Source: Candidatus Firestoneibacteriota bacterium | GTDB taxonomy: Bacteria; Oederibacteriota; D2-FULL-39-29; JBBTED01 | Assembly (NCBI GenBank): GCA_038042445.1 | Contig: JBBTED010000059.1 | Coordinates: 20,972-84,971 of the forward strand | DNA: 64,000 nucleotides | Direction of reading: 5' to 3' | Part shown: positions 2,073-35,444 of the stretch, piece by piece | Numbering within the stretch: position 1 is the first letter of the stretch | Layout of the letters: each line of letters starts with the position of its first letter | Notes under the pieces: generated by a model | Database searches by the model: none | What the model saw: the letters and a program-made list of their open reading frames with translations, nothing else | Told to the model about the DNA's origin: nothing | Position numbers and translations under genes: made by a program

Positions 2073-2629
2073 TTTCAACTAATGACTTTCGAAAAGGGGT
2101 AATTATAGAAGTGGATAATATTTCTTGTGAAGTGATTGATTTTCAGCATGTAAAACCTGGTAAAGGTGGTGCTTTTGTAAGGACAAAGTTAAAAAATGTT
2201 AAAACAGGAGCAGTGCTTGATAAAACTTTTAATGCCGGGATAAAAGTAAAATTGGCAGATTTGGAAGAAAAATCTGTGCAATATTTATATAAATCCGAAA
2301 AAGAATACCATTTTATGGATGATAGAACTTATGAGCAGATATATCTTACCCAAGAGCAGATTGGAGACAACATAAAGTTTTTAAAAGAAAATATGACTTT
2401 GGATTTAGTATGTAAAGACGGGGTAGCGCTTACCATTAAATTCCCAACTTTTGTTGAATTAAAAATAACTGATACTCCTCCAGGTGTAAAAGGAGATACT
2501 GCAGCTACAAATTCAAAACCTGCAACTGTAGAAACAGGAGCATTAATTCAAGTGCCATTTTTTATCAATATTGGTGACGTTATAAAGATTGATACCAGAA
2601 CAAATGATTATGTAGAGCGGGTAAAATAA
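2069..2629 (+). CDS. efp: Elongation factor P
   Basis: HVKPGKGGAFVR, PGVKGDT, VPFFI..GD.IKIDTR. Confidence 0.97.
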   Translation: MISTNDFRKGVIIEVDNISCEVIDFQHVKPGKGGAFVRTKLKNVKTGAVLDKTFNAGIKVKLADLEEKSVQYLYKSEKEYHFMDDRTYEQIYLTQEQIGDNIKFLKENMTLDLVCKDGVALTIKFPTFVELKITDTPPGVKGDTAATNSKPATVETGALIQVPFFINIGDVIKIDTRTNDYVERVK

Positions 2630-2660
2630 TTATGGTCTGGTGAAAGAAGACAGACCATAA
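2630..2660 (+). promoter_or_regulatory. Inverted repeat upstream of accB, with a related copy upstream of the manC-like gene
   Basis: TTATGGTCTG-N11-CAGACCATAA, a perfect 10-bp inverted repeat ending 10 nt before the accB ATG. Confidence 0.5.
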
Positions 2661-2670
2661 ACAGAAAATT

Positions 2671-3129
2671 ATGAATATAAAAGAAATAAAAGAATTAATA
2701 GATTTAATACATAATACTGATGTGGCTGAATTGGAATTAGAACGTGAAGGGACCAGAATACGAATAAGAAAGGCAAGCGGAGATTTGCCAAAAGAAGTTA
2801 TCACTATGATTAATACTGCAAAGCAAGTTCAGAATGTTCCTGATGCACAGGTTGTTTTACCACAAAAAGAAAAGGCGGCAGAAAATCTAATTACTATTAC
2901 TGCTCCAATGGTTGGGACTTTTTATAGAGCGAATGCTCCAGATGCTTCACCTTATGTGCAAGAGGGCGATGTTGTAGCTGATGGTCAGACTATCTGTATT
3001 ATTGAAGCTATGAAACTTATGAATGAAATAAAATCTGAAACTAAAGGTAAGATTGTAAAAATATTGGTTGAAAGTGGACATGCTATTGAATATGGTCAAC
3101 CATTATTTTTGTTGGAGCCTGTAACCTAA
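2671..3129 (+). CDS. accB: Acetyl-CoA carboxylase biotin carboxyl carrier protein
   Basis: APMVGTFY and the EAMKLMNEI biotinylation motif. Confidence 0.97.
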
Positions 3130-3131
3130 CA

Positions 3132-4478
3132 GTGTTTAGCAAAATTCTTATTGCAAATCGTGGTGAAATAGCATTACGTATAATCCGTGCTTGTAAAGAA
3201 ATGGGAATTCGAACAGTTGCCGTTCATTCTGAAGCAGATGCAGATTCTCTTCATGTCCGATTTGCCGATGAAAATATATGTATAGGTGCACCATCTCCTG
3301 CCAAAAGCTATCTAAATATTGCCGCCATTATAAGTTCTGCTGAAATAACTGATGCCGAAGCTATACATCCGGGTTATGGTTTTCTTGCCGAAAATGCACA
3401 TTTTGCAGAAATTTGTGCTGAATGTAATATAAAATTTATAGGTCCTACACCAGATATTATGAGGAAAATGGGAGATAAAGTTGCGGCAAGGCAGACAATG
3501 AAAGCTGCAGGTGTGCCTGTAATTCCTGGAAGCGATGGTGTTATAAAGGATGAAAAAGAGGCGCTAAAAATTGCAAAGCAGATTGGCTATCCAGTTATAA
3601 TAAAAGCTGTAGCCGGTGGTGGTGGAAGAGGAATGCGTGTTGCGCATACAGATGTAAGTTTGACAAATGCTTTTCATACTGCAAGAGCTGAAGCAGAATC
3701 ATCATTTGGAAATCCTGATGTTTATATTGAAAAATATGTAGAAGAACCAAAACATATAGAAGTGCAACTTTTAGGTGATGAAAAAGGCAATATTTATCAT
3801 CTTGGTGAGAGAGATTGTACAATTCAAAGGCGGCATCAGAAATTAATAGAAGAATCACCATCACCTGCTATTAGTAATGCATTGCGTGATGAAATAGGTA
3901 ATGCTGCACTTAAAGGAGCTGAAAGTGTAGGATATGTTAGTGCTGGAACAATAGAATTTTTGCTTGATAAAAATAACAAATTTTATTTTATGGAAATGAA
4001 TACCAGAATACAGGTTGAACATGGTGTTACAGAAATGGTTACTGGATTAGATATAGTTAAAGAACAAATAAGAATAGCTGCAGGAGAGGAACTTAAACTT
4101 CCTAAAAAAGAAATTGGGTTAAGAGGGCATTCTATAGAATGTCGTATAAATGCAGAAGATTCTGAAAAAGGGTTTATACCTTCTCCCGGTAAAATTACAA
4201 GTTATTATGTTCCGGGTGGTCCTGGTGTTAGAATTGATACACATGTTTATGAAGAATATGTAATACCGCCATATTATGATTCACTTATTGCAAAAGCTAT
4301 AACACATGGTCAGAGTCGTATAGAAGCTATAACGCGTATGGAAAGAGTTCTTGATGAATTTGTAATAGAAGGTATAAAAACCACAATACCGTTTCACAAA
4401 AAAGTACTTTCAAATCCATTATTCAGACGTGGAGAAATTCACACTGATTTTATAAAAATGTTGGAGGAATCTCAATGA
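3132..4478 (+). CDS. accC: Biotin carboxylase
   Basis: [39 protein letters not shown]. Confidence 0.97.
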
Positions 4479-4822
4479 AACAGGATATTACAAGAAATCC
4501 ATTGGGAGTTTTAAATATTTCTATAGAAGCAATTGCTTCTATATCTGCTATTGCTGCATCTAAAGTGCCGGGAGTTATTGGAATGAGTGGGGGAGTTATA
4601 GATACAATTGCACAGTTTTTAGGTAAGAAAGGTGTTGATAAAGGTATCAGAGTTACAGTAGATGAAAAGGAAGTTGGTTTGGATTTATTTATAATTGTAA
4701 ATTTTGGTTCAGATATTTCAGAAATTGGCGCACAGGTTCAGGAAAAAGTAAGAGATGCAGTTGAAAATATGACAGGTCTTTCAGTTCGTGAAGTTAATGT
4801 TACAGTTCAGGAAGTAAAATAA
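4475..4822 (+). CDS. Asp23/Gls24 family envelope stress protein
   Basis: [13 protein letters not shown]...KGIRV...[21 protein letters not shown]; typical position after accC. Confidence 0.88.
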
Positions 4823-4836
4823 ATACTAATAATATT

Positions 4837-6096
4837 ATGAATTCCAAAGATATTGTTTTGAAAAGTTTAAAGCATCAGGATATTGAAAAAGTACCTGTGG
4901 ATTTTGGTGCAACTGCAGTTACAGGGATACATATAAGTTGTGTTGCAAAGTTGCGTGAGTATTATGGATTGAAAAAACTTCCAGTTAAGGTGATTGAGCC
5001 ATATCAGATGCTTGGTGAAATAGATAAGGAATTGAAAAATATAATAGGCGTTGATATTGAAGGAGTATTTCCAAAAAATAATATGTTTGGTTTCCCAAAT
5101 GAAAATTGGAAAGAGTGGAAAATGCCTGATGGTTTGATTGTTTTAGTGCCTGAAAAATTTAATACTACAGTAGATAATAATGGTGTTACATACATTTATC
5201 CGCAGGGTGATACTAATGTTTTTCCATCTGGGAAGATGCCTGCAGATGGTTATTTTTTTGATGCTATAATACGGCAGGAACCACTTGATGAGGAAAATCT
5301 TAATCCTGAAGATAATTTGGAAGAATTTAAAATTTTTACAGATGAAGATATTGCATATTTTGAGAATGCAATAAGAAATGCATCATTAACAAATCGTGCA
5401 GTTATTGCTACTTTTGGTGGGAGTGCATTTGGTGATATTGCATTAGTTCCTGCGCCATTTCTTAAACATCCAAAGGGTATTCGGGATATTGAAGAATGGT
5501 ATATATCTACAATTGCAAGACAGGATTATATTCATAAAGTATTTGAAAAACAGTCAGAGATTGCTATTTTAAATCTGGATAAAATATATAAAAGTGTTGG
5601 TAATCTTGTTAATGTTGTTTTTGTCTGTGGTACTGATTTCGGAACCCAAAATTCCACGTTTTGTTCGTTAGATACGTTTCGTAATCTGTATATGCCTTAT
5701 TATAAAAAAATAAATAATTGGATTCATAAAAATACACAATGGAAGACTTTTAAACATTCTTGTGGAGCAGTTGAGTCTTTTATTCCATCTCTGGTTGAAT
5801 CAGGGTTTGATATACTAAATCCGGTCCAATGTTCTGCTAAAGGTATGGATGCTGAATTATCAAAACAGAAATATGGAAATATAATTTCTTTCTGGGGTGG
5901 AGGTGTTGATACACAAAAAACACTTCCATTTGGTACACCTTCTGAAGTACGTGAACAAGTACTTAAAAGATGTGAAATATTTTCAAAGAATGGCGGATTT
6001 ATATTTAATACTATCCACAATATTCAGGTAAAAACTCCAATTGAGAATATTGTAGCAATGATTGATGCGTTACATGAATTTAATTCTGCAAGATAA
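4837..6096 (+). CDS. Uroporphyrinogen decarboxylase / methylcobamide methyltransferase (MtaA-like) family protein
   Basis: DFGTQ, HSCG, LNPVQ, FWGGGVDTQ..LPFGTP, HNIQ motifs. Confidence 0.85.
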   Translation: MNSKDIVLKSLKHQDIEKVPVDFGATAVTGIHISCVAKLREYYGLKKLPVKVIEPYQMLGEIDKELKNIIGVDIEGVFPKNNMFGFPNENWKEWKMPDGLIVLVPEKFNTTVDNNGVTYIYPQGDTNVFPSGKMPADGYFFDAIIRQEPLDEENLNPEDNLEEFKIFTDEDIAYFENAIRNASLTNRAVIATFGGSAFGDIALVPAPFLKHPKGIRDIEEWYISTIARQDYIHKVFEKQSEIAILNLDKIYKSVGNLVNVVFVCGTDFGTQNSTFCSLDTFRNLYMPYYKKINNWIHKNTQWKTFKHSCGAVESFIPSLVESGFDILNPVQCSAKGMDAELSKQKYGNIISFWGGGVDTQKTLPFGTPSEVREQVLKRCEIFSKNGGFIFNTIHNIQVKTPIENIVAMIDALHEFNSAR

Positions 6097-6302
6097 AATA
6101 TATTAATCACTATAAGTTTCATAAATAACATCATTTGACAAGATAGGGAAATACAATAGTTTTGCTTCTTTCGTATTTTAGGGTGCATTATTAGTATTTA
6201 TTTTGTAAGAAAGTATATATATTAGGTCATTCTGAACGAAAGTGAAGACGAAAGAACCATAAATTTCTTGATTTTTCATTATATTTCTGGTATTTTTATA
6301 GC

Positions 6303-6593
6303 ATGAATAAAGAAGAAATAAAAAACATTCTTAGTTCTCAACTTTCTTTTCTAAAAGAAAAATACCATGTCAAAAAATTAGGCATTTTTGGTTCTGTCGT
6401 TAGAAATGAAGCAAAAGAAGATAGTGATGTAGATGTAATGGTAGAGTTTGAATCTCCAATCGGTTTTTTTGAATTCATCAGGTTAGAAAATTTCTTAAGT
6501 GAAAAAATTCAGCAAAAAGTTGATCTTGTTTCTACAAAAGCGATAAAACCAATTATAAAGAACGATATTCTTAAGGAAACAATTTATGTCTAA
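6303..6593 (+). CDS. mntA: Minimal nucleotidyltransferase (MNT) antitoxin
   Basis: GS-X10-DxD (FGSVVRNEAKEDSDVD) and KVDLV; overlaps the HEPN gene. Confidence 0.9.
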   Translation: MNKEEIKNILSSQLSFLKEKYHVKKLGIFGSVVRNEAKEDSDVDVMVEFESPIGFFEFIRLENFLSEKIQQKVDLVSTKAIKPIIKNDILKETIYV

Positions 6594-6933
6594 AAGAGAA
6601 TCACGGCTTTATCTTGAAGATATAAAAGACTCTATTGGCAAGATAGAGAGATACATTAAAGATTTATCTTTTGATGAATTTACTGAAGACGATAAAACAA
6701 TTGATGCTATTGTTAGAAATCTGAGCATAATTGGTGAGGCTGCAAGAAATATTCCTGAGGACATAAAGTTAAAGAATCCCGATATTGCTTGGATTGAAAT
6801 CATTGGTATGAGAAATAAAATCACTCACGAATATTTTGGTATTGATGAAGATATTTTATGGAAGACTATAAAAGAAGATTTGCCAATCTTAAAAAATCAG
6901 ATTTTGGAATTATTAAAAAATTTTTTGATATAA
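6586..6933 (+). CDS. hepT: HEPN (DUF86) RNase toxin
   Basis: IIGEAA and the R-X4-H-X-Y motif RNKITHEY. Confidence 0.9.
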   Translation: MSKRESRLYLEDIKDSIGKIERYIKDLSFDEFTEDDKTIDAIVRNLSIIGEAARNIPEDIKLKNPDIAWIEIIGMRNKITHEYFGIDEDILWKTIKEDLPILKNQILELLKNFLI

Positions 6934-7094
6934 AATACCAACAATAGTTTCCTAAAATTTAGCATTTCAAAATATCAGTAACCCTTAACATATTAAAATA
7001 CTAACATCATCTGATTTTAAAATATTGAAGATATAATTTATAAAAATAGATTTACTTAATTGGAAACAATTGTTAAAATTTACAAAGAAATAAT

Positions 7095-7424
7095 ATGAAA
7101 ACAACTAATATTGTTGGTTTTGATGAGTCTATTACAATAGAGTGGAAGCCATCAAAAACTGACGAATATAGTTTTATAATAAATATTTATTCTGCCAAAG
7201 ACAAGTTTGTAGGAGAAGAGGAACTTCCTGAGTTTAATGAAAGACAGAAGAAAGCAATAGAATATGTAAAGAAGAAAGGCTCTATCAGTAGAAAAGAATA
7301 TAAACAACTTAATGGAATTTCTCATACCATTGCGCATAAAGAATTAAAAAATCTTGCAGAAAAAGATATTTTTAAAATACAAGGTGCTGGTAAATATTTA
7401 CGATATGGGTTGACGCAAGGTTGA
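7095..7424 (+). pseudogene. Probable remnant: C-terminal winged HTH of an AlbA_2/RecG-C-type ATP-binding protein
   Basis: NERQKKAIEYV...SISRKEY..L...S...A..EL..L.....F...GAGK..RY is normally the tail of a much longer protein; no upstream domains are present. Confidence 0.55.
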
Positions 7425-7657
7425 CGCAATAAAATTTGAAGAATAAGAGATAAATTCCGTATGATGTTTAGCATAAAAATATTGGCAGTTGTTACTCAAC
7501 AGATTGTATTAATAAACAGTTTGTTGGGTAATAGTAGAAAATATGAAAGGTGTGTTAAAAGGTATTTTATCAGAATAATTTGAAAATTCTATTCGGATGA
7601 AACAAGAATATGAATAGGCTTTAAGAATATTACCAAAATGTAACAAATATTAAATTT

Positions 7658-9037
7658 ATGATTGATCAAAATACACATAAAATAAAAGCGATGTACGATA
7701 ATTTGTTGGGTTTAATGGAAAAACTAATTTTTGTTTTGTCTACGGATTATAATAGTGATAAAAGTAATGATAAAGTTGTGCAAAAGTATATATTAGGTGA
7801 AAATGGTTGGAGTATAGGGGATATAAAGGTTAATGAAAGATTGTATTCGCATAGTAATATTATTCATTATATGGACAGTATTTGTGACATGAAAAAATCG
7901 AAAAATTTGTTTAAAGTTTTGTTAGGCAATAAATTTATTAAAAATCCATCTTTTGTAGATTCAAATAATAATACTGTTGAAAGTCCTGATGAAAAATCTG
8001 TTTTATGGTCCGGATTGTTACATGGCAATATATTTTATTTTATTAGTAGATATTTAGACCAAATAGATACATTGAATTTTGATAAAAATATTTTTGATAA
8101 ATTGTATTGCGATTTTGAAAGTTATACCATTAATGAAAAAGCAAAATTTGTTGGATATATACCATTGTTGAATTTTTCATCTGATATGAAGAATACAAAA
8201 TTTGATAATGGAGTAGAAATAATATATTTAGAACCAAATAAACGAGAATACTTTGCAAATTCCTTATTTTACAGAGAACCGAATACAGGAGATTTATGCG
8301 ATGTAGATGGTATCTTTAAATCTGGCTTTGCTTTTAAATTTATTTTTGAAGATAATAAAAGATCATCTTTGTCAGGTGAATCTATTAACTGTATTGTAAA
8401 AAAAAGCGAAAAAATTATTACTGCTTTACGCCTATTAAAATCTGGGGATCTATATCTGTCTAATTTTATTTTTTCAGAATCTATTAATAATTTCAATCCG
8501 CCACTAGTTGAGCCATTGAGGAACTCTATACATAGCAATTTTGCATCAGATAAATATTCAGGAGAAATCTTTAATTTTAATAATAATAGCGATTTTAAAA
8601 TATGCAATGATATATTCAAAGTACTTATAGAAGATAATTTAGATGTAATTGAAATTGCACTAAGAAGATTTAGCGATATTTATAGAAGAGAGTTATCAGA
8701 AGATAAAATAATTGATATGGCTATATTGCTTGAAAGTATTTTGCTTTATGGTATTAGTAATGAATTGAGTTATCGCTTTTGTTTGCGAGGAGCATATCTT
8801 CTTGAAAACAAAAGAGAAAAAGACAAGACATTTAAAACATTAGGAGAATTTTACAGAATTCGTAGTAACATTGTACATGGAAATGATAAAAAGAATTATT
8901 CTTGTGAAGTCGTTGAAGTAGAAAATATATGCAGAGAAATAATAAAATTAATAATTGAAGAATTACACAATAAAAATTCGTTGGAAAATATTATAAAGAA
9001 TATAGATAAAAGCATTTTATATAAAAATAATGTTTAG
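7658..9037 (+). CDS. Apea-like HEPN domain protein
   Basis: C-terminal LESIL...ELSYRF.LRGA.LL...FYRIRSNIVHG (R-X4-H); very AT-rich. Confidence 0.75.
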   Translation: MIDQNTHKIKAMYDNLLGLMEKLIFVLSTDYNSDKSNDKVVQKYILGENGWSIGDIKVNERLYSHSNIIHYMDSICDMKKSKNLFKVLLGNKFIKNPSFVDSNNNTVESPDEKSVLWSGLLHGNIFYFISRYLDQIDTLNFDKNIFDKLYCDFESYTINEKAKFVGYIPLLNFSSDMKNTKFDNGVEIIYLEPNKREYFANSLFYREPNTGDLCDVDGIFKSGFAFKFIFEDNKRSSLSGESINCIVKKSEKIITALRLLKSGDLYLSNFIFSESINNFNPPLVEPLRNSIHSNFASDKYSGEIFNFNNNSDFKICNDIFKVLIEDNLDVIEIALRRFSDIYRRELSEDKIIDMAILLESILLYGISNELSYRFCLRGAYLLENKREKDKTFKTLGEFYRIRSNIVHGNDKKNYSCEVVEVENICREIIKLIIEELHNKNSLENIIKNIDKSILYKNNV

Positions 9038-9073
9038 TATTAATATGAAGTGTAATATACTTTATGTAAATTT

Positions 9074-9158
9074 GCGAGGGTGGCGGAATTGGCAGACGCG
9101 TTGGACTTAGGATCCAATGCCGAAGGGCATGGGGGTTCAACTCCCCCCTCTCGCACCA
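9074..9158 (+). tRNA. tRNA-Leu (TAG)
   Basis: GCGAGGGTGGCGGAATTGGCAGACGC, anticodon arm TTGGA-CTTAGGA-TCCAA, long variable arm, GGTTCAACTCC, CCA end. Confidence 0.97.
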
Positions 9159-9217
9159 TTATAAAGATATTGAAATATAAAGAGTTTTTGTGTAGAGTAA
9201 AAGTGAGGTGATATGTA

Positions 9218-9403
9218 ATGATAACTGTAAAGCAAGAAGTTATTAAAATGATAAGTAACTTGTCAGACAAAGTTGATTATGATGAAATTATGGCTGAAAT
9301 ATATTTTAGACAAAAAGTTGATAAAAGCTTACAGCAAATTGAAGAACAAAAGATTGTTAGTCATAAAGAGGCAAAAAAGCGGATATCTAAGTGGATAAAA
9401 TAA
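9218..9403 (+). CDS. Small antitoxin-like protein, apparently an orphan
   Basis: SD GAGGTG. KQEVIKMI..L...V.YDEIM.EIYF.QKV...L...E....SH.EAK.R..KW resembles partners of RelE/ParE toxins; no toxin gene follows. Confidence 0.6.
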   Translation: MITVKQEVIKMISNLSDKVDYDEIMAEIYFRQKVDKSLQQIEEQKIVSHKEAKKRISKWIK

Positions 9404-9414
9404 AGGGGAATATT

Positions 9415-10518
9415 TTGAAAAAAACAATTGGGGTGTTGACAGGTGGTGGGGATTGCTCTGGTTTAAATGCTGCGATAAGAGCAGTAGTTAAAACAGCAAT
9501 TAATGATTATGGTATGGATGTTATTGGTTTTAAAGATGGATATCTAGGGCTTGTAGAATCTCAATTTAAAAAATTTACTTTAAATGATGCTTCAGGATTA
9601 CTTACGATAGGTGGAACTATACTTGGAACATCAAATAAAGCTGACCCATTTAATTATGTTGTATATACTAAAAAAAATAAATTCACAAAAAAAGATATGT
9701 CGAAAATTGCATTGAAAAATTATAAAAGATTAAAGCTGAGTGCTCTTATATGTATAGGTGGAGATGGTACATTATTTATTGCCAATAAATTAAGCAAAAT
9801 CGGGCTCAATATTGTTGGAATACCTAAAACAATAGACAATGACCTTTGTGCTACGGATGTGACTATTGGTTTTAATTCTGCTGTAGCAATAGCTACTGAT
9901 GCAATTGATAAACTTCATTCTACTGCAATGTCTCACCATAGAGTTATGATTATTGAGGTTATGGGAAGATATGCAGGGTGGCTTGCTTTGGAATCTGGAA
10001 TAGCGGGTGGTGGTGATATAATATTGATACCTGAGATACCTTATGATATAAAAATTGTATGTCAAAAAGTGTTGGAACGTCATCATAAGGGTAAACGTTT
10101 TAGTATAATAGTTGTAGCAGAAGGAGCAAAGCCAATAGGTGGAAATATGAGTATTAATAAAATTGTTAAAGATAGTCCTGACCCAATAAGACTTGGTGGT
10201 ATAGGAACCTTGCTTGGAAATGAAATAGAAAAAAGGACTGGTTTAGAAACAAGAGCAACTATTCTTGGGCATTTACAACGTGGAGGAATACCAACTGCTT
10301 ATGATAGAGTTCTTGCTACAAGACTTGGCAGAGAAGCAGTCCATCTTGCAGAAAAAAAATTATTTGGCATAATGGTTGCTTTAAAAGGTAAGGATATTGT
10401 TGCTGTTAAACTTGAAGAAGCAGTAGGAAAGTTGTGCAAAGTAGAATGCAATTCTTCTTTAATTGCAGCAGCTAAATCACTTGGAGTTTCTTTTGGAATA
10501 AAAAAAGGAGATATTTAA
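9415..10518 (+). CDS. pfkA: 6-phosphofructokinase (group III type, probably ATP-dependent)
   Basis: TGGGD, GGDG, PKTIDND, EVMGR, LGHLQRGG. TTG start at 9415 chosen for the AGGGG SD; the ORF track starts at 9391. Confidence 0.93.
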   Translation: MKKTIGVLTGGGDCSGLNAAIRAVVKTAINDYGMDVIGFKDGYLGLVESQFKKFTLNDASGLLTIGGTILGTSNKADPFNYVVYTKKNKFTKKDMSKIALKNYKRLKLSALICIGGDGTLFIANKLSKIGLNIVGIPKTIDNDLCATDVTIGFNSAVAIATDAIDKLHSTAMSHHRVMIIEVMGRYAGWLALESGIAGGGDIILIPEIPYDIKIVCQKVLERHHKGKRFSIIVVAEGAKPIGGNMSINKIVKDSPDPIRLGGIGTLLGNEIEKRTGLETRATILGHLQRGGIPTAYDRVLATRLGREAVHLAEKKLFGIMVALKGKDIVAVKLEEAVGKLCKVECNSSLIAAAKSLGVSFGIKKGDI

Positions 10519-10519
10519 A

Positions 10520-11611
10520 ATGAGTGATACCGAATACATAGATGCACCTTTGGAAGAGATGCATTTTTTATTAAAAAAAACAATTGAAAAAAAAGCGTCC
10601 GATTTAATTATTACTCCAAATTCTTCTCCTAAATTTAGAATTGATGGTAAATTGGTTTCAGGAGAATTTTCTATTCTTAGTGCAGAACGTACCTCTGCAC
10701 TATTACATAGCATACTTAGTGAGGCAGAATTTGAAACTTTACTAAATAAACATGAGCTTGATTTTACCTGTGGAGTTTCTCATGTAGGCAGATTTCGTGT
10801 AAATGCATATTTTCAAAGAGGAAGTATTGCAGCAGCTTTTAGACCGATACCATCGCATATTCCAACTTTAAAAGAACTTCATTTGCCACAGTCTTTGGCA
10901 GATTTGGTAGATTATCCTAATGGTTTGGTTTTACTTACTGGGCCAACTGGTTGTGGAAAATCTACTACATTGGCGACATTAATAGAAATAATAAATGAAA
11001 AATATAATTATCATGTGATAACTATAGAAGATCCAATTGAATACATTTATAAAAACAAAAAAAGTGTAATAGACCAAAGAGAAGTTGGTGCAGATACTGA
11101 TTCATTTGCCAATGCACTGCGGAATGTTGTTCGGCAAAGTCCGGATGTTATACTTGTTGGAGAAATGCGGGATTTAGAGACAATTTCTATGGCTATTACT
11201 GCTGCTGAAACAGGACATCTTGTGTTTTCTACTTTACATACTATAGATGCAGCTCAATCTATACATCGTATTGTAGATGTTTTTCCTTCACATCAACAGC
11301 AGCAAATCCGAGTGCAATTGGCAGGTTGTTTGCGTGCTATTGCAAGCCAGTGTTTGTTGCCTAAATTAGATGATGAAGGAAGAATACCGGCATTAGAAGT
11401 AATGGTTGTTAACTCTGCTATACGTTCTATGATTACTTTGAATGATATTCAGCAAATTCCAAGTGTTATACAAACTGGAGCAAAAGAGGGAATGAAAACA
11501 TTGAATCAAACACTTAAAGAATTAGTTGAGAAGAAACTTATTTCTTATGATACAGCTATAATTAAGAGTAGTAGCATACAAAATTTCTTTGGTAGATTTA
11601 CTATTGATTGA
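10520..11611 (+). CDS. pilT: Type IV pilus retraction ATPase, PilT family
   Basis: GPTGCGKST, TIEDPIE, QREVG, PDVILVGEMRD, ETGHLVFSTLH. Confidence 0.92.
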   Translation: MSDTEYIDAPLEEMHFLLKKTIEKKASDLIITPNSSPKFRIDGKLVSGEFSILSAERTSALLHSILSEAEFETLLNKHELDFTCGVSHVGRFRVNAYFQRGSIAAAFRPIPSHIPTLKELHLPQSLADLVDYPNGLVLLTGPTGCGKSTTLATLIEIINEKYNYHVITIEDPIEYIYKNKKSVIDQREVGADTDSFANALRNVVRQSPDVILVGEMRDLETISMAITAAETGHLVFSTLHTIDAAQSIHRIVDVFPSHQQQQIRVQLAGCLRAIASQCLLPKLDDEGRIPALEVMVVNSAIRSMITLNDIQQIPSVIQTGAKEGMKTLNQTLKELVEKKLISYDTAIIKSSSIQNFFGRFTID

Positions 11612-11632
11612 TAATTAAAAGGAGAATACAAA

Positions 11633-13810
11633 ATGGATGTGATTGAACGAAGACGTGCTGAAAGAATAACAATGCTGGCTGGTGTAAAGCTGAAGGAAAA
11701 AGAATATGGAATAGTAACTGAAGGGACAATAGTTAATATAAGTACACTTGGGCTTGGAGTTTTATCTTCTCAAACAATTCCAAGAGGAAAACAACTGTCA
11801 CTTTTTTTTGATTTGTCAGGTAATATTAATTTTGAAAATTTATCTGCGCGTGTAATACGAGGAACGCAACTTGTTGACAATCATTATTTGGCACTTGAAT
11901 TTACAGATATAACAGATGAACATAAAGGAAAAATAGATAAATTTGTAGAATCTTTTAAATGCAATTTTTCAATAATTTTTCAGCCGTATGGCAAAAAAAT
12001 AGTTGTTCCTGCAGGGACAAAAATTAAAGAAGCAGCTGCGCTTGCCGGAATAATGATTGAGACCCCATGTGGTGGCCAGAGTAAATGTGGTAAATGTTAT
12101 GTTGAAGTTATTACAGGTCTTATGCCGGCAAATGCAGAAGAGTCTAAAATATTGCAGGATGCACAGTTGCCAAATAACTTTCGTTTGTCCTGCAAAAGTG
12201 TTATTCAGACAAATACAGTAGTTAGAATTCCAGAAGAAACACTGCTATATACACAAAAGATTTTAGCAGAAGGTGTGGGGACTAAAGTGGTTGTTCAATC
12301 TGCTGTCAAAAAAATATATATTGAAATGGAAAAACCAAGTTTAGATAAACAGATAGGCGATTGGGATAATTTAAAATATAATTTAAAAGGCATAGTGAAT
12401 TCTCCAATTTCTAATTTAGATATGTTAAAGAATTTGTCAAAAAAACTCAAAGAATCAGATTTTAAAATAACTGTTACATCTGTTAATAATGAAATAATTG
12501 ATATTGAAAAAGGTAATACTGTGAGTAATTCTTATGGTATGGCATTTGATATAGGCACAACTACAGTTGTTGGAAGCCTCATAGATTTGGGCACAGGCGA
12601 AGTTAAAGCAGTTGTTCCTGCGATGAATCCACAGGTAGTCTATGGTGATGATGTAATATCAAGAATAAAATTTTCTATAACTGAATCCGATGGTTTAAAA
12701 AAAGTACATAGTAAAATAATAGATTTAATAAATGATTTAATATCAAAAGCTGTTAAAGTATGCAAGATTGACAAAAAGTCAATTTATGAAATAACTATTG
12801 TTGGAAATAGCACAATGCAGCATTTTTTTCTTGGTGTTTCTCCGGAAAATCTTGGGTTTTTACCGTATGTTCCTGTTATTCAGGAATCCTGTGATATAAA
12901 GGCGTGCGATTTAAAATTAGATATTAATCCAAATGGCAATGTTCATATTTTACCTAATATTGCTGGTTACGTTGGTGCAGATACAGTTGGGGTAATACTA
13001 TCCGCTTCTTTACATAAAAGTGAAAAAATAAAATTAGCTATAGATATTGGAACAAATGGAGAGATAGTTCTGGGTTCTAAAGATTTGCTGGTGTCTTGCT
13101 CTACTGCTGCTGGTCCTGCATTTGAAGGAGTGCATATTTCTTGTGGTATGAGAGCTGCATCAGGTGCTATTGATAAAGTAAAAATAGAAAATGATGATAT
13201 ATTTATTAATGTGATTGAGGGTGCAGTGCCACATGGTATATGTGGGACTGGGCTTGTTGATGCTGTTGCAGTGCTTTTAAGTGCTGGAATAATAGATGAG
13301 ACAGGAAGGATTTTATCAAAGGGAGAATTAGATAAAAAAGTGTCTGCTAAGTTGGCTGCTCGTATTGTAGAAGGGAAAAGCGGGTATGATTTTATATTGT
13401 GGCAGTCTGATACTAAAAAAATATTATTAACCCAAAAAGATGTCCGGGAATTACAATTGGCAAAAGGTGCTATAAGAAGTGGAATTGAAAGTTTGAAAAA
13501 AAACCTAAAAATTAGTAATGCTGATATTGAAGAAGTTCTTTTGGCCGGTGCATTTGGAAATTATCTTAAGCCAGAAAGTGCATTGCGTATAGGATTAATT
13601 CCGGATTTTCCACTATCCAAGGTTAAATCAATAGGAAATGCTGCATTTGAAGGCGCAAAAATGGCACTTGTGTCTGTTTTGGCACGTAAAGAATCTGATG
13701 AAATAGGTAGAAAAGCAAAATATATTGAATTGTCAACTGTGCAGGATTTTAACGAAGAATTTTCTAATGCTATGATGTTTCCAAAGTGGCAAGATATTGC
13801 TACGAAATAA
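11633..13810 (+). CDS. PilZ-[2Fe-2S]-ASKHA fusion (RACo/DUF4445-type corrinoid reductive activator with an N-terminal PilZ domain)
   Basis: RRRAER and NISTLG (PilZ); CGGQSKCGKC...RLSC (2Fe-2S); DIGTTT, DIGTNGE, AAGPAFEG, GICGTG, LAGAFG (ASKHA). Confidence 0.88.
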   Translation: MDVIERRRAERITMLAGVKLKEKEYGIVTEGTIVNISTLGLGVLSSQTIPRGKQLSLFFDLSGNINFENLSARVIRGTQLVDNHYLALEFTDITDEHKGKIDKFVESFKCNFSIIFQPYGKKIVVPAGTKIKEAAALAGIMIETPCGGQSKCGKCYVEVITGLMPANAEESKILQDAQLPNNFRLSCKSVIQTNTVVRIPEETLLYTQKILAEGVGTKVVVQSAVKKIYIEMEKPSLDKQIGDWDNLKYNLKGIVNSPISNLDMLKNLSKKLKESDFKITVTSVNNEIIDIEKGNTVSNSYGMAFDIGTTTVVGSLIDLGTGEVKAVVPAMNPQVVYGDDVISRIKFSITESDGLKKVHSKIIDLINDLISKAVKVCKIDKKSIYEITIVGNSTMQHFFLGVSPENLGFLPYVPVIQESCDIKACDLKLDINPNGNVHILPNIAGYVGADTVGVILSASLHKSEKIKLAIDIGTNGEIVLGSKDLLVSCSTAAGPAFEGVHISCGMRAASGAIDKVKIENDDIFINVIEGAVPHGICGTGLVDAVAVLLSAGIIDETGRILSKGELDKKVSAKLAARIVEGKSGYDFILWQSDTKKILLTQKDVRELQLAKGAIRSGIESLKKNLKISNADIEEVLLAGAFGNYLKPESALRIGLIPDFPLSKVKSIGNAAFEGAKMALVSVLARKESDEIGRKAKYIELSTVQDFNEEFSNAMMFPKWQDIATK

Positions 13811-14572
13811 ATGCCGCTGTATAAAACCCAAGCCATAGTTGTTAATTCTGTCAATTTCGGCGAAGCAAATAGAATACTGACATTATATACTTTTAAATTC
13901 GGAAAAATTCAGGCTGTAGTTAAAGGAATACGGAAGATAAAAAGCAGATTTGGTAGTTCAATGGAACTTTTTACAAACTGCACACTGATGCTTTATAGAA
14001 AAGAAGGAAAAGAATTATATACAGTAACACAGGTTGAAGTAATTAATTCGCTTAGATTTCTAAAAGAAAATTTAAAAAAGATGGTATTTGGAAGTTATAT
14101 TCTTGAGATTCTTTTGCATTTTGTTCCTGCCGAAGAAAAAAATGAAGAATTATATAATTTATTAATAAAAACTCTTATAAATATCGAAAAAAAAGATTAT
14201 GTTGAGAAGATTGCATTGACTTTTGCAATTCAGCTATTATCTATTGCAGGATATAAAATGAGAACTGATGTTTGTGTAATTTGCAAAACAAAACCTTTAG
14301 ATAAAGGTTCTCTTGGGTTAAGCTATGTTTTTGGAGGTATTTTATGTGCTAAATGCTCTTTAAATGATGAAGAAGCTCTTAGTATTTCACAGGATATATT
14401 TAAAACTATAAAAAATGTATATAAGGCAAATATAGATACAGAAAATTCAATGAATACAAATACAGATTTAACTATGGAAACCATTTTATTGCTGAATGTT
14501 TTTTTTGAAAATATTGTAGAAAGAAAATTTAAAGTTCCGGCAGTATTGAAAAAACTTGCAATTGCATTTTAA
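13811..14572 (+). CDS. recO: DNA repair protein RecO
   Basis: GEANRILTLYT...GKI....KG.RK.KSR; C-terminal CxxC...CxxC zinc finger. Confidence 0.93.
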   Translation: MPLYKTQAIVVNSVNFGEANRILTLYTFKFGKIQAVVKGIRKIKSRFGSSMELFTNCTLMLYRKEGKELYTVTQVEVINSLRFLKENLKKMVFGSYILEILLHFVPAEEKNEELYNLLIKTLINIEKKDYVEKIALTFAIQLLSIAGYKMRTDVCVICKTKPLDKGSLGLSYVFGGILCAKCSLNDEEALSISQDIFKTIKNVYKANIDTENSMNTNTDLTMETILLLNVFFENIVERKFKVPAVLKKLAIAF

Positions 14573-14573
14573 G

Positions 14574-15659
14574 ATGATGAAAATACTTATATCTGGATAT
14601 TATGGGTTTAAAAATGCAGGAGATGAATTGATACTTGAAGCACTGCTTGGCAGGTTTAAAAAAATATTGTCTGAAAAAGAAGAAATTGTGATTTTGTCAA
14701 ATATTCCTTCTGTTACATCAAAGTTATATGGTGTTAAATCTATTAACCGTAAAAATTTCTGGTTGATAATAAAAGAATTATTAAATACCAATTTGTTTAT
14801 TACAGGTGGTGGAGGGCTATTTCAGGATGTAACAAGTATTAAAAGTTTGATGTATTATTTATTTTTGATTTTTATTGCACAAATTTTGAATGTAAAAACA
14901 ATGCTATATGCTTGTGGCATAGGCCCGATTAATACAAAAATTGGAAAGTTTTGGACACGTTTGATTCTCAAAAAAGTTGATTATATAACTTTGAGAGATA
15001 ATTTTTCGTATGAAGTATTAAAGTCAATAGGCATATATAGAGAAGATATTGTGATTTGTGCAGATCCAGTAGTAACTTTAAATGAGGGGAATAAAAGTGC
15101 AGGGGAAATACTGCTAAAAAAGATATTTAAAAATACCAATGTCCCAATTTTGGGAATTGCTCCACGTGCTTGTTCAACATCTATTGATTTTTGCAAAGTA
15201 ATTGCTGAATTTTCAGATAAGTTAATTGAAGCTAATAATTGGAATGTTATTTTTATTCCATTTGATTTACAAAATGACATAACAGTTATAAAGAATATTA
15301 CTTCTAAAATGAAAAAGAAACATTTTGTATTAGATAATTATACTTTAAGTGAACTTGTTGATGTTGTATCTGCATTGGATATTTTACTTGGTATGAGGTT
15401 GCATTCTTTGATTTTGGCTTGCGCAAATAAAATTCCTGCAATAGGTATAAATTATGACCCAAAAGTAAAAAACTTTCAGCAATTGATAGATATGCCTTGT
15501 TTTGAAATCCCCGAATTATCTGTAGAACAATTATTTGATAAGACAATTAAAACTTATGAACAGCGGGATAAATATTCTAAAATACTTGGGTTGAAACTTC
15601 CTGAGCTTGTAGAATCAGTAGATAAACCAGCTGTGATAGTTTCTAACTTATTTTTTTAA
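14574..15659 (+). CDS. csaB: Polysaccharide pyruvyl transferase CsaB
   Basis: ISGYYGFKNAGDE, GGGGLFQDVTS, GMRLHSLI, YDPKV. Confidence 0.9.
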   Translation: MMKILISGYYGFKNAGDELILEALLGRFKKILSEKEEIVILSNIPSVTSKLYGVKSINRKNFWLIIKELLNTNLFITGGGGLFQDVTSIKSLMYYLFLIFIAQILNVKTMLYACGIGPINTKIGKFWTRLILKKVDYITLRDNFSYEVLKSIGIYREDIVICADPVVTLNEGNKSAGEILLKKIFKNTNVPILGIAPRACSTSIDFCKVIAEFSDKLIEANNWNVIFIPFDLQNDITVIKNITSKMKKKHFVLDNYTLSELVDVVSALDILLGMRLHSLILACANKIPAIGINYDPKVKNFQQLIDMPCFEIPELSVEQLFDKTIKTYEQRDKYSKILGLKLPELVESVDKPAVIVSNLFF

Positions 15660-16241
15660 CTGACTAATTGTTGTTTTTAATTTTTCTATTAATAGTGTGG
15701 TTTCTATTGAAGTAGCAACCTGGTTTGCTAATATTTCTAATATTTCCAAATCTTCTGTTGTCCAAATTTCATTATTTACTTTATTCACAACCTCAAGAAC
15801 TCCAATGATTTTGTTTTTTTCAAGTTCTTCGTTCACTTTAACTGTTAGAGGTGTTGCTATAATAGATCTTGTAGTAAATCCGCTTTTTCCATCAATATCC
15901 GTATTGAATCTTGTATCATCTTTTACATTATTAACAATAATTGCTTTTTTTTCTTTTATGACCCATCCTGCAATACCCTGGGAAATTGGCATTCTTATTC
16001 TTGAAACAGCATTTGCCTTTTTTCCATGTGCTATTTCAAAATACAATTCATTTTTTTCTCTATCAATTAAAATGACAGAGCTACCTTCTGCCTGTAGTAA
16101 TTCAGCTGTAACTGACATTACATACGGAAGCAACTTTATTATATCTAAATTTAAAGCCAATACTGTGTTGATATCCAATAGTGTTGATAGAGTTTCAACC
16201 TTTTTCTTTAATAATTCTACTTCCGGATTTTTATTACTCAT
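15648..16241 (-). CDS. Stand-alone GAF domain protein
   Basis: GIAGWV, D.RF...D..SGFTTRSI..PL, IGVLEVVNK. Start at 16241 chosen because TGgTAGAAT lies 8 nt upstream; the ORF track starts at 16259. Confidence 0.8.
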   Translation of the reverse strand: MSNKNPEVELLKKKVETLSTLLDINTVLALNLDIIKLLPYVMSVTAELLQAEGSSVILIDREKNELYFEIAHGKKANAVSRIRMPISQGIAGWVIKEKKAIIVNNVKDDTRFNTDIDGKSGFTTRSIIATPLTVKVNEELEKNKIIGVLEVVNKVNNEIWTTEDLEILEILANQVATSIETTLLIEKLKTTISQLKK

Positions 16242-16332
16242 ATAACGTAATTCTACCATATTTGACTATTTTTGTTCCACAAAAATTTTTTAATTGAAAG
16301 AAGAAGCAGTTTTTGGTATAAATAACACAATA

Positions 16333-16430
16333 TAGTTTAAAATGTAAAGTGAAAAACGTAAAACCAAAGCTAAAAATTTAAAATTTTAAGCTATAGTTTT
16401 TTGCTTCTAGTTTTAAGTTTTTAGCTATAT
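16333..16430. repeat. Degenerate heptamer array forming an inverted repeat
   Basis: Units taaaatg/taaagtg/aaaaacg/taaaacc/aaagcta, followed by tagtttt/aagtttt/tagctat. Confidence 0.5.
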
Positions 16431-16484
16431 AGTAGCGCTAACGTTTTGCAATTGCATAGCAATTACAAAAAGGGGGATAGTGGT

Positions 16485-17456
16485 ATGGCAGATGTTAAAA
16501 TTGGGTTTATAGGCACTGGTGGTATAGCAAATGCACATGCAGGAGTGCTTTCACAATTGCCAGATGTGAAAATAATTGCTTGTACTGATGTAGATGAAAA
16601 AAAAGGTAATGAATTTGCTTCAAAGTATAGCGCAAAATTTTTAAAAGATTATAAGGCTTTATTAGATATAAAAGAAATAGATGCTGTTTATATATGTACT
16701 CCGCCATATTTGCATAAAGAGCAGGTAATAGATACAGCAAAGGCAAAAAAACATATATTTTGTGAAAAGCCAATAACATTAAATTTGGCTGATGCTGATG
16801 AGATTGCAAAAGTAATTAAATCGGCAGGTGTAAAATTAATGGTGGGTTATATTTTGCATTTTTATCCGGCTTGCAAAACTTTGAAGGATATATTTGAATC
16901 TGGTAAACTTGGCTCATTACTTACTTGTTGGTCAAATAGGTTAGGTTATTTTAATACTGCAAAAAAATGGATTTCTGATCCTTCTAAAAGTGGAGGTATG
17001 ACAGTTGAGTTTTTTACACATGATTTGGATTGGCTTAAATGGGTCGGTGGTGAAGTGTTATCAGTATATGGAAAAGTGTGGCGTGTTCATCCTGATACAC
17101 AGACAGAAGATAATATATGGACTATTCTTACATTTAAAACTGGAGTTGGTGTAGGTGGTGCAAGTTGGGCATCTCCACTTGGAAATACTACAATGGGAGT
17201 TATAGGAACAAAAGGTGGAGCAATAATGTTAGATTGGACTAAAATAAAAGTAAAAGAAAATAATGGAGAAGAAAAAATAATTGAAGTAGAACCTACGGGT
17301 GTGGCTATGGTTAATGAAGATAAACATTTTATTGAATGCATAAAATCAGGTAAAGATCCTATAAATAATATAGTAGATGCACGTGAAGTTTTAAGAATAG
17401 CTTTAGCTGTTCAGCAGTCTTCACGTGAAAACAAAGTCATACAATTGGGGGCATAG
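16485..17456 (+). CDS. Gfo/Idh/MocA family oxidoreductase
   Basis: IGFIGTGGIA, CTPP..H, CEKP, HDLD; ATG at 16485 follows the AGGGGG SD. Confidence 0.92.
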   Translation: MADVKIGFIGTGGIANAHAGVLSQLPDVKIIACTDVDEKKGNEFASKYSAKFLKDYKALLDIKEIDAVYICTPPYLHKEQVIDTAKAKKHIFCEKPITLNLADADEIAKVIKSAGVKLMVGYILHFYPACKTLKDIFESGKLGSLLTCWSNRLGYFNTAKKWISDPSKSGGMTVEFFTHDLDWLKWVGGEVLSVYGKVWRVHPDTQTEDNIWTILTFKTGVGVGGASWASPLGNTTMGVIGTKGGAIMLDWTKIKVKENNGEEKIIEVEPTGVAMVNEDKHFIECIKSGKDPINNIVDAREVLRIALAVQQSSRENKVIQLGA

Positions 17457-17522
17457 CCAAGCGGCTAAGGCAGCAGTCTGCAAAACTGTTATTCATCGGT
17501 TCAAGTCCGATTGCCCCCTCCA
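17447..17522 (+). tRNA. tRNA-Cys (GCA), overlapping the upstream CDS by 10 nt
   Basis: Acceptor stem GGGGGCA/TGCCCCC, U discriminator, CCA; anticodon loop CTGCAAA; GGTTCAAGTCC. Confidence 0.95.
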
Positions 17523-17554
17523 CAAATTAAATATAATAGGTTAGCGTTTCTAAG

Positions 17555-17626
17555 TTGTCATTGCGAATGAAGTGAAGCAATCCCGTTTTTAGATTGCTTT
17601 GTCACTAATGTTCCTCGCAATGACAA
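17555..17626. repeat. Palindromic element, GTCATTGCGA...TCGCAATGAC family
   Basis: 12-bp terminal inverted repeat plus an inner GCAATC/GATTGC pair; a related copy in the opposite orientation lies at 47915-48004. Confidence 0.85.
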
Positions 17627-17641
17627 ATTATAGGAGAAAAG

Positions 17642-18505
17642 ATGTTTAAATTAGGGATTTTTACTGACGAGGTTTCACAAGAGCTTGATGTTGCTATAAA
17701 ACTTGCAAAAGAATTTAATTTGGATTCTGTTGAAATTAGAACTGTATGGAATAAATCACCGCATCAGTTGGACAACAACGATATAGACAAAATTAAGCAA
17801 TTACTTGATAGTGCGAATCTAAAGATTTCCTGTATTGCTTCTCCATTTCTTAAATGTGATATTGACAATGAAAAAGAATATTTAGAACACATAGAAATTT
17901 TTAAAAAATGTATTATCGTTGCAAAAAAACTTGGCACAAATTTGATTCGTGGATTTACTTTCTGGCGAAAGGGAGAATTAGAGCAATATTACTCAAAAAT
18001 TATTGATAAATATAAAGAGCCAGCCAGAATTGCAAAAGATGAAAATATTATTATTGCAATAGAAAATGAAGCATCTTGTTTTATTGGCAGAGGCGCTGAC
18101 CTCGGAAAGTTTCTAAAAGATATTAATTCGAAAAATGTTTTAGCTGTATGGGATCCTGCTAATGAGATATATGATCCAAAAGGCGAAAATCCGTATCCTG
18201 ATGGGTATGAACATATTAAAAAATTTATGATACATATGCATCTTAAGGATGCAGTGCATAAAGGTGAAAATAGTGCAGAATGTGTGGAAATTGGCGAAGG
18301 AGAAATTGATTTCCCAAGTCAATTTAAAGAACTTAAAACATCTGGTTATAACGGATATGTTTCTTTGGAAACACACTGGCGTGCAAAAGGTAATTTAACT
18401 GAGTCACAGATGAACAGACCAGGTGGTGGCGCGTTTTCAGAATCTGGGGAAATATCGTCAAGAATTTGTCTGGAAAATTGGATGAGAATTCTTAGATCTA
18501 TATAA
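17642..18505 (+). CDS. Sugar phosphate isomerase/epimerase (xylose isomerase-like TIM barrel)
   Basis: FTDEVSQ, IENE, WDPAN, HMHLKD, SLETHW. Confidence 0.87.
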   Translation: MFKLGIFTDEVSQELDVAIKLAKEFNLDSVEIRTVWNKSPHQLDNNDIDKIKQLLDSANLKISCIASPFLKCDIDNEKEYLEHIEIFKKCIIVAKKLGTNLIRGFTFWRKGELEQYYSKIIDKYKEPARIAKDENIIIAIENEASCFIGRGADLGKFLKDINSKNVLAVWDPANEIYDPKGENPYPDGYEHIKKFMIHMHLKDAVHKGENSAECVEIGEGEIDFPSQFKELKTSGYNGYVSLETHWRAKGNLTESQMNRPGGGAFSESGEISSRICLENWMRILRSI

Positions 18506-35360: not shown

Positions 35361-35444
35361 TATGGTCTGGTGGAAAAAATATCAACCATAAGGGAAAAAA
35401 TTATACTGTCTCCTTAAAACACACAGTATCAGGGAAAAAATTAT
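35361..35444 (+). promoter_or_regulatory. Structured leader upstream of the manC-like gene
   Basis: TATGGTCTGGTG...ACCATAA (similar to 2631-2660), then AGGGAAAAAATTAT twice (35391, 35431) flanking an ATACTGT/ACAGTAT hairpin. Confidence 0.45.

Follow-up and report, generated by a model that had tools for sequence, protein, structure and literature searches.

A PilZ domain in frame with a corrinoid reductive activator

The 64-kb stretch of DNA analysed here (the window: 64,000 nucleotides (nt) of contig JBBTED010000059.1, Candidatus Firestoneibacteriota bacterium, whose 58 main open reading frames (ORFs) were scanned for protein families) contains, at 11633..13810 on the + strand, an ORF in which a PilZ domain runs without interruption into a plant-type [2Fe-2S] ferredoxin domain (Fer2) and the ASKHA ATPase body of a RACo-like activator of corrinoid (B12) proteins. 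This PilZ + RACE protein, hereafter the fusion, is a new combination of two well-known modules that has so far been seen once. We propose, with a probability of about 0.42, that binding of cyclic di-GMP (c-di-GMP) to the PilZ domain modulates the adjoining, mobile [2Fe-2S] domain and would thereby tune the reactivation of a corrinoid protein; ligand binding, regulation in cis and the corrinoid target are each deduced from sequence.

All five Pfam domains of the 725-amino-acid (aa) protein score above their gathering cutoffs. The in-frame order from PilZ through Fer2 to ASKHA, which a preliminary description of this DNA had read from the letters, is thus upheld, and so are the motifs that it quoted (ERRRAER at residues 5-11, NISTLG at 35-40, the cluster cysteines, DIGTTT and DIGTNGE). 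The features of the gene are as follows.

11620..11625, + strand: Shine-Dalgarno sequence AAGGAG, read from the sequence, 7 nt before the ATG at 11633
11633..13810, + strand: PilZ + Fer2 + RACE-type ASKHA activator ORF, 725 aa, ATG start (ORF list, Pfam, NCBIfam)
11645..11950, + strand: PilZ domain, residues 5-106 (PF07238, 41.8 bits against a gathering cutoff of 22.5, E 1.5e-10, profile positions 1-101 of 102)
11651..11665, + strand: RxxxR motif R7-R8-A9-E10-R11, followed by I12-T13-M14 (RxxxRhxh), from the sequence
11735..11752, + strand: [D/N]hSxxG motif N35-I36-S37-T38-L39-G40, from the sequence
11951..11980, + strand: junction, residues 107-116, with no stop and no in-frame ATG, GTG or TTG, from the sequence
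11981..12205, + strand: plant-type [2Fe-2S] ferredoxin domain, residues 117-191 (PF00111, 33.5 bits against 21)
12287..12520, + strand: RACo_linker, residues 219-296 (PF17650, 64.5 bits against 26.2)
12533..13021, + strand: Raco_middle, residues 301-463, with DIGTTT at 306-311 (PF17651, 198.6 bits against 26.8)
13028..13786, + strand: RACo_C_ter ASKHA domain, residues 466-718, with DIGTNGE at 471-477 and S490-T491-A492 (PF14574, 275.5 bits against 27)

The PilZ domain carries the complete c-di-GMP signature

Canonical c-di-GMP-binding PilZ domains are defined by the motifs RxxxR, often extended to RxxxRhxh, and [D/N]hSxxG (Galperin and Chou, 10.1101/814665). By these definitions both extended motifs are intact in the fusion, hydrophobic h positions included. 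When the stop-free six-frame translation of the window (35,727 residues) is searched with the pair as a regular expression (R...R.{15,35}[DN].S..G), the PilZ domain of the fusion is the single match; related loci give 34 matches in 736,940 residues, and the match thus stands well above chance. The ESM Atlas holds the fusion sequence letter for letter, with a model of predicted template modelling score (pTM) 0.74 and predicted local distance difference test (pLDDT) 0.83. The 30 nearest Atlas feature matches for residues 1-113 are all PilZ clusters (score 0.91), and the Atlas model of residues 1-111 superimposes on PilZ cluster models with template modelling (TM) scores of 0.83-0.89, predicted models being compared with one another; a PilZ-cyclase cluster is among its structural neighbours. 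Judged by profile and motifs, the protein begins with a canonical PilZ domain whose motifs are complete and which would be expected to bind c-di-GMP.

The enzyme body is RACE-type without being RACo proper

The [2Fe-2S] ligands of the fusion, C146-x5-C152-x2-C155 plus C187, occupy invariant columns in alignments of 18 and of 62 sequences, as do D306, G308, T309 and D471-I-G-T-N-G-E477 of the ASKHA phosphate motifs. The best match among solved structures is RACo of Carboxydothermus hydrogenoformans (PDB 3zyy; E 1.3e-112, query residues 111-718), and since this alignment begins at query residue 111, the first ~110 residues are extra. In the full-length AlphaFold2 (AF2) model, built on the 62-sequence alignment, the enzyme body reaches a pLDDT of ~90. 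The enzyme body, with its catalytic motifs intact, looks functional.

By its domains the RACo part is assigned as a RACE-type (RACo/AE/RamA-like) ASKHA ATPase. In the strict sense the activator is not RACo/AcsV, judging from its profile scores and from one active-site column. It scores 484.8 bits with the NCBIfam AcsV model (NF040756), below the cutoff of 800, and 148.3 bits, over residues 301-710, with the RamA model (TIGR04270), below the cutoff of 500. Ser398 of RACo, the Co(II) ligand in its complex with CoFeSP (PMC4934906), aligns with A492 of the fusion (offset +94, ungapped block), Ser490 and Thr491 lying just upstream. Because the protein is not a strict RACo/AcsV, the link to acetogenic one-carbon metabolism that had been drawn for it is unfounded.

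The same column holds Ala in 190 of 191 motif-bearing relatives (L001-L080, P0002-P0120), members of methyltransferase operons included, and a Ser two residues upstream is common (CSTAA in 109, CSCAA in 35, ASTAA in 22); this Ser could substitute for Ser398. Independently of the fusion, most members of the RACE family may ligate cobalt in a way other than that described for RACo.

The tree (FastTree, 80 rows) comprised the RACo part of the window, 64 locus ORFs of 560-700 aa and 15 database hits, and left out 16 loci, three without a called ORF and 13 outside the length range. The RACo part groups with two Firestonebacteria sequences at an SH-like support of 93, below the threshold of 95, and these rows lie inside a loosely supported 23-row group with Omnitrophota, Desantisbacteria, Planctomycetota, Spirochaetota, Latescibacterota and Verrucomicrobiota, the highest identity being 50%.

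The junction is clean

After the PilZ domain, the reading frame offers no ATG, GTG or TTG before M141, which lies inside Fer2, and the interval contains neither a stop nor a second ribosome-binding site. The RACo part can therefore not be made alone from a canonical start, and the fusion is obligate; the strong Shine-Dalgarno sequence before the ATG at 11633 supports translation from the PilZ domain.

These features bear on whether assembly or sequencing could have joined two genes, or the sequences of two organisms, in silico. Such an artefact would fit an architecture that is unique in our searches and a source that is apparently an uncultured, low-GC organism, since chimeric contigs occur there. 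Nevertheless, we consider it highly improbable. The frame is continuous, with no stop codon across the join, and a single-base error cannot create the fusion, because the second half has neither a start codon nor a Shine-Dalgarno sequence of its own. The join sits, in the alignment, exactly at the native N-terminus of the relatives, that is, of their Fer2 domain. Composition is uniform over the junction: the PilZ part has a GC content of 0.319 versus 0.339, it does not stand out from the window in GC, GC at third codon positions (GC3) or codon usage (rank 21 of 62 among 113-codon chunks), and GC is even across the junction region. Finally, the identical protein is found on three contigs, the longest of 144,916 bp, as well as in the ESM Atlas, although these records may stem from one common sample.

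Proposed mechanism

PilZ domains bind c-di-GMP through their two motifs, and the Fer2 domain of RACE enzymes is mobile and donates the electron. The enzyme body of the fusion would bind a Co(II) corrinoid protein, as the RACE family does, and ATP would drive an electron uphill from the [2Fe-2S] cluster, so that Co(I) would be regenerated and B12-dependent methyl transfer restored. The PilZ domain appears to be joined to the N-terminal ferredoxin domain by a very short linker: in the low-confidence part of the model, its C-terminal helix (residues 95-108) runs nearly straight into the first Fer2 strand (111-117). Fer2 must move relative to the ATPase core, and PilZ is attached directly to Fer2; if the RxxxR loop closes onto the barrel when the ligand binds, the behaviour of Fer2 would change, whether in its mobility, its docking or its access to the donor. 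The repair step would thereby become responsive to c-di-GMP, with an effect that could be of either sign. The predicted complex of the PilZ part (1-113) with the RACo body (114-725) and two c-di-GMP, run without controls, gave scores of 0.07 and 0.01 against a mark of 0.32, and as a model it is evidence neither for nor against docking of PilZ on the RACo body.

A stronger version, in which c-di-GMP, through a PilZ domain that would clamp or free the mobile [2Fe-2S] domain, directly gates B12 repair and so turns B12-dependent methyl transfer on or off, for instance by methionine synthase, and with it the supply of methionine and S-adenosylmethionine (SAM), appears improbable to us.

Rarity of the architecture and alternative readings

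Several observations weigh against regulation by c-di-GMP, and they are gathered in this section, beginning with the rarity of the architecture. A homolog search returned 7,995 proteins at E<=0.001 from 8,000 scored candidates. PF07238 occurs in one of the best 120, which were inspected, and this one is the fusion protein itself; the other 119 are of 590-698 aa, are at most 50% identical and start at the ferredoxin domain. An exhaustive HMMER scan of 1.84 billion cluster representatives with residues 1-215 (PilZ + Fer2), which would miss unrelated fusions of PilZ to a more distant Fer2, yielded 2,831 hits at E<=0.001. Of the best 150, the fusion alone matches residues 1-215, and the remaining 149 match query residues 103-215 only, starting within the first 76 residues of the hit. 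In 80 related loci taken from GTDB species genomes, the source genome and its close kin not being among the matches listed, none of the 77 RACE ORFs called has a PilZ-sized extension (the longest is of ~65 aa), and tblastn with the PilZ part matches 0 of the 80 loci. With only one instance of the architecture, a selected regulatory coupling finds no support in conservation.

Other searches gave the same picture. No Atlas cluster of at least 50 members near the whole protein lists PilZ. The scans of neighbouring genes in the loci were made at E<=1e-8 and E<=1e-10, thresholds at which weak PilZ matches could escape. Within the 80 loci, 12 ORFs (60 aa or longer) carry the motif pair; one of them is the RACE gene of locus L073, and none of the 11 others is PilZ when scanned at E<=0.01, a result that PilZ domains lacking the motifs would escape. 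In the literature, among the papers listed, those on PilZ + corrinoid being judged by title or abstract, we found no described PilZ + RACo, PilZ + corrinoid or PilZ + ASKHA architecture and no paper joining c-di-GMP, 'reductive activator' and corrinoid, and the word 'ferredoxin' occurs 0 times in the main text of the PilZ survey (10.1101/814665). The earlier statements that relatives normally begin at the ferredoxin domain and that no described example of the architecture was known have thus stood up.

The position of the gene raises a further difficulty, since a place next to pilT points to a different function of the PilZ domain. The fusion lies third in a tight cluster whose other members are the following.

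9391..10518, + strand: pfkA, 6-phosphofructokinase, first gene of the tight cluster (PF00365; TIGR02483, 447.7 bits against 430.55)
10520..11611, + strand: pilT, type IV pilus retraction ATPase family (TIGR01420, 450.5 bits against 319.1)
13811..14572, + strand: recO, directly abutting the stop codon of the fusion (RecO_N, RecO_C; TIGR00613, 146.5 bits against 48.7)
14556..15659, + strand: csaB, polysaccharide pyruvyl transferase (PF04230; TIGR03609, 277.5 bits against 213.1)

The gaps along pfkA-pilT-fusion-recO-csaB are of 1, 21, 0 and -17 nt, so the gene does lie directly behind pilT, as had been said. The operon is inferred from this spacing only, because scans of 9000-16500 are at chance for both promoters (43 sites versus 39.3 +/- 6.4 expected) and terminators (5 versus 2.9 +/- 1.9 expected). 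Moreover, pfkA, pilT, recO and csaB of the window each have tblastn matches in 0 of the 80 loci. The argument that a pfkA-pilT operon fits c-di-GMP control of one-carbon metabolism is not supported beyond the spacing, and adjacency to pilT equally supports the incidental fusion of a pilus-linked pilZ gene.

In such an event, the stop codon of a pilT-linked pilZ and the spacer behind it would have disappeared, so that the gene became continuous with the one downstream, no regulatory coupling being involved; PilZ would still act on the pilus machinery (PilT, for example) or be idle, and the activator would work as in its relatives. This would agree with the 21-nt distance from pilT and with the ability of PilZ proteins to regulate type IV pili by protein contacts, as in Xanthomonas PilZ-FimX-PilB (10.1101/814665). 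A singleton in every search is what a young or neutral event would leave, and pfkA, pilT, recO and csaB have no functional link to corrinoids; both the singleton status and the unrelated neighbourhood fit an incidental fusion equally well. On the other hand, no relative with separate pilT, pilZ and RACE genes is found among the matches listed, near kin not being among them, and the clean junction retains no remnant stop, start or Shine-Dalgarno sequence. The PilZ helix leads almost directly into Fer2 strand 1 (in the low-confidence model), both c-di-GMP motifs and all enzyme motifs have been kept, and a bulky domain would hardly leave unaffected the mobile electron donor on which it is directly placed. 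On balance we regard an incidental fusion as rather unlikely, although it is the most serious competitor of the proposed reading.

The PilZ fold itself is a second matter that weighs against the proposal. AF2 performs poorly on residues 1-115 without an alignment (pLDDT 39.4), and in the full-length model the PilZ part has a pLDDT of 25-52, strands being followed by a helix at 95-108 at low confidence; the short linker to Fer2 is taken from this same part of the model. The PilZ part has no match in the PDB at E<=10 (phmmer). Word-indexed searches with it recovered, among proteins of near length, itself alone (230 candidates) and, among shorter proteins, none matching at E<=1e-3 (33 candidates). 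Because the AF2 models are poor, the evidence for a PilZ fold comes from the Pfam profile and from the predicted model of the Atlas.

Thirdly, among the 58 window ORFs scanned there is no GGDEF, EAL or HD-GYP gene and no B12-binding, MttB, pterin-binding, MetH or CFeSP (corrinoid iron-sulfur protein)/acs gene. The lack of c-di-GMP-metabolising genes would suit a PilZ domain that serves as an interaction or localisation module and does not respond to c-di-GMP, docking a donor or a corrinoid partner or oligomerising, with its motifs retained from an ancestor. Some PilZ domains do act only by protein contacts (10.1101/814665). However, non-binding PilZ domains typically have disrupted motifs (10.1101/814665), and here both are intact, with the hydrophobic h positions and the RxxxRhxh extension; the lack of c-di-GMP genes covers 64 kb of the genome only. 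A c-di-GMP-unresponsive module thus seems quite improbable, and modulation of Fer2 by the ligand remains the reading that we put forward.

Corrinoid context and candidate target

The RACE family is tied to corrinoid systems by its gene neighbourhoods. Of the immediate neighbours in the 80 loci, 143 were scanned at E<=1e-8, and a corrinoid-methyltransferase component is the immediate RACE neighbour in 25 of the 80 relatives (counts: B12-binding 5, URO-D 8, pterin-binding 5, MttB 2, DUF1638 6, homocysteine S-methyltransferase 1). In the fusion's own tree group, this is so in one of 10 locus rows, that of L074. A scan of 6-kb neighbourhoods (11 loci, 80 proteins, E<=1e-10) showed that L016, L041 and L074 carry URO-D-like, MttB, DUF1638 or homocysteine S-methyltransferase genes within 6 kb.

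In the window itself, one candidate partner lies 5.5 kb upstream of the fusion.

4837..6096, + strand: URO-D / MtaA-CmuA-like ORF, 419 aa (PF01208, 59.7 bits, residues 214-415 only)

This ORF scores 48.4 bits with MtaA/CmuA against a cutoff of 235.4, its N-terminal ~210 residues match nothing, and tblastn finds relatives of it in 12 of the 80 RACE loci. It may be a methyltransferase that depends on corrinoid and belongs to the same system, although this is unproven. Proteins of similar length, with a URO-D match that is likewise C-terminal only, are immediate RACE neighbours in L019, L026 and L050, and the same C-terminal URO-D type is found within 6 kb of the RACE gene in L016 and L074.

Fer2 + DUF4445 proteins are genetically required for the reactivation of MetH B12 in Phaeobacter and Desulfovibrio, and such activators co-occur with DUF1638 (Price et al. 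2018, PMC5764234). Given these findings, a MetH-type target would be at least as likely as a Wood-Ljungdahl one. A MetH lacking its activation domain, or a small methyltransferase system that includes the 4837..6096 ORF, is a more likely target than the CFeSP of the Wood-Ljungdahl pathway.

Two further observations concern corrinoid genes. In L074 (Latescibacterota), positions 452-7688 hold, in this order, genes for a B12-binding protein, RACE, DUF1638, a URO-D-like protein, a nitroreductase, a second URO-D-like protein and a homocysteine S-methyltransferase; this compact cluster, from the same broad tree group as the fusion, looks like a split, MetH-like methionine synthase with its own activator. 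The tetrapyrrole-methylase ORF at 30040-30720 of the window was considered as a hint of corrin biosynthesis and rejected, as it is RsmI (TIGR00096, 256 bits against 167.9).

Other genes of the window

Downstream of the cluster and convergent with csaB, a 203-aa GAF-only protein is encoded at 15648-16259 on the - strand (67.3 bits), a domain of the type that senses small molecules, without an output domain. It is followed at 16446-18505 by a GFO_IDH_MocA oxidoreductase and a xylose-isomerase-like triosephosphate isomerase (TIM) barrel (AP_endonuc_2). The same pair occurs at 2750-5916 of the Desantisbacteria locus L001; the two GFO proteins are 33% identical, each lies within a few kb of a RACE gene, and they are the only trace of a shared neighbourhood that was found.

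The type IV pilus genes appear scattered. At 439-2629 of the window, efp, accB and accC, and not pilO/P/Q, come directly after pilM and pilN, and pilT lies ~8 kb further on.

Just upstream of pfkA, where the DNA is AT-rich (GC 0.26-0.29), lies what may be a small islet of mobile or defence genes. It comprises a type VII toxin-antitoxin pair (6303-6933), in which the gene of an MntA-like nucleotidyltransferase (6303-6593; NTP_transf_2, 58.5 bits) overlaps that of a HepT-like RNase (6586-6933; PF01934, 104 bits; HepT_toxin, 46 bits, below the cutoff of 60), and a 459-aa ORF (7658-9037) that matched no Pfam or NCBIfam family. Farther downstream, a type II restriction-modification (R-M) pair at 57103-58693, consisting of an N6_N4 DNA methylase (57103-57951) and an EcoO109I-family endonuclease (57926-58693), lies between a leuC-like gene (Aconitase, 55598-56854) and a leuD-like gene (Aconitase_C, 59373-59858). 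With a gene order of ilvC - psd - pssA - leuA - leuC - [R-M] - leuD - leuB - asd, the pair looks like an insertion into a leucine operon. Lastly, 35443-39353 encodes an 832-aa protein that joins a nucleotidyl transferase (with hexapeptide repeats) to a phosphoglucomutase/phosphomannomutase; a second, stand-alone phosphoglucomutase/phosphomannomutase of 474 aa comes next and overlaps it.

Significance

Most known roles of c-di-GMP receptors lie in the control of motility, adhesion, exopolysaccharide secretion and transcription, and RACE enzymes are generally regarded as housekeeping activators that work constitutively. The fusion described here hints at, without proving, a second-messenger control of B12-dependent methyl transfer. 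If this is true, the reach of c-di-GMP would extend to the redox maintenance of B12 enzymes and possibly to the supply of methionine and SAM, and the lifestyle switch governed by c-di-GMP would be tied directly, at the post-translational level, to central methyl-group metabolism. The fusion would, moreover, be the first RACE-type activator found with a small-molecule sensor domain. The system is compact, with one polypeptide, one ligand and one measurable electron transfer, but its value is limited by its being a singleton in an uncultured organism that may be an evolutionary accident.

Comparison with known systems

Among characterised activators, RACo of C. hydrogenoformans (PDB 3zyy, 4c1n) is arranged in the same order, Fer2 - linker - middle - ASKHA C-terminal, and its [2Fe-2S] cysteines and ASKHA phosphate motifs are kept in the fusion. 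The fusion differs from it by the extra 113-residue N-terminal PilZ domain, by Ala492 in place of the Co(II)-ligating Ser398 and by a 64-kb window that is devoid of CFeSP and acs genes. RamA of methanogens (TIGR04270) shares the ASKHA core with the fusion, the score being far under the cutoff. RamA carries 4Fe-4S clusters, whereas the fusion has an N-terminal plant-type [2Fe-2S] domain instead. As for the chemistry, RACo performs an ATP-driven reduction of Co(II) to Co(I) (PMC7317905), and the same is presumed for the fusion.

The RamA-like B12 reactivators (Phaeobacter PGA1_c15200, Desulfovibrio Dde_2711 / DvMF_1398; PMC5764234) consist of the same ferredoxin + DUF4445 (RACo_C_ter) and, like the fusion, are encoded outside dedicated methylotrophy operons (PMC5764234). 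DUF1638 or homocysteine S-methyltransferase genes adjoin the fusion's relatives L034, L044, L046, L051, L059, L074 and L025, whereas the window of the fusion has neither a MetH nor a DUF1638 gene. The passages of PMC5764234 that deal with these MetH reactivators report no PilZ domain on them, and the likeness is one of architecture.

On the side of the sensor, MapZ (PA4608) of P. aeruginosa, a protein of ~110 aa, has its motif residues (R9, R13, D35, V36 and S37; 10.1101/814665) at nearly the same positions as the fusion (R7/R11 and N35-I36-S37). PilZ domains of the MapZ type consist of strands followed by a long C-terminal helix, and the PilZ part of the fusion is predicted alike, in the low-confidence AF2 model; it is enzyme-bound and not free-standing as in MapZ, and has no pairwise match to a solved PilZ structure (E<=10). 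The known outputs of PilZ fusions listed in the main text of the survey are exopolysaccharide synthesis or secretion, motility and signalling, with no iron-sulfur cofactor-repair ATPase among them (10.1101/814665). The arrangement itself has precedents in BcsA, Alg44 and the PilZ-adenylate/guanylate cyclases, in which PilZ is likewise carried covalently on the output protein and c-di-GMP exerts its control in cis (10.1101/814665).

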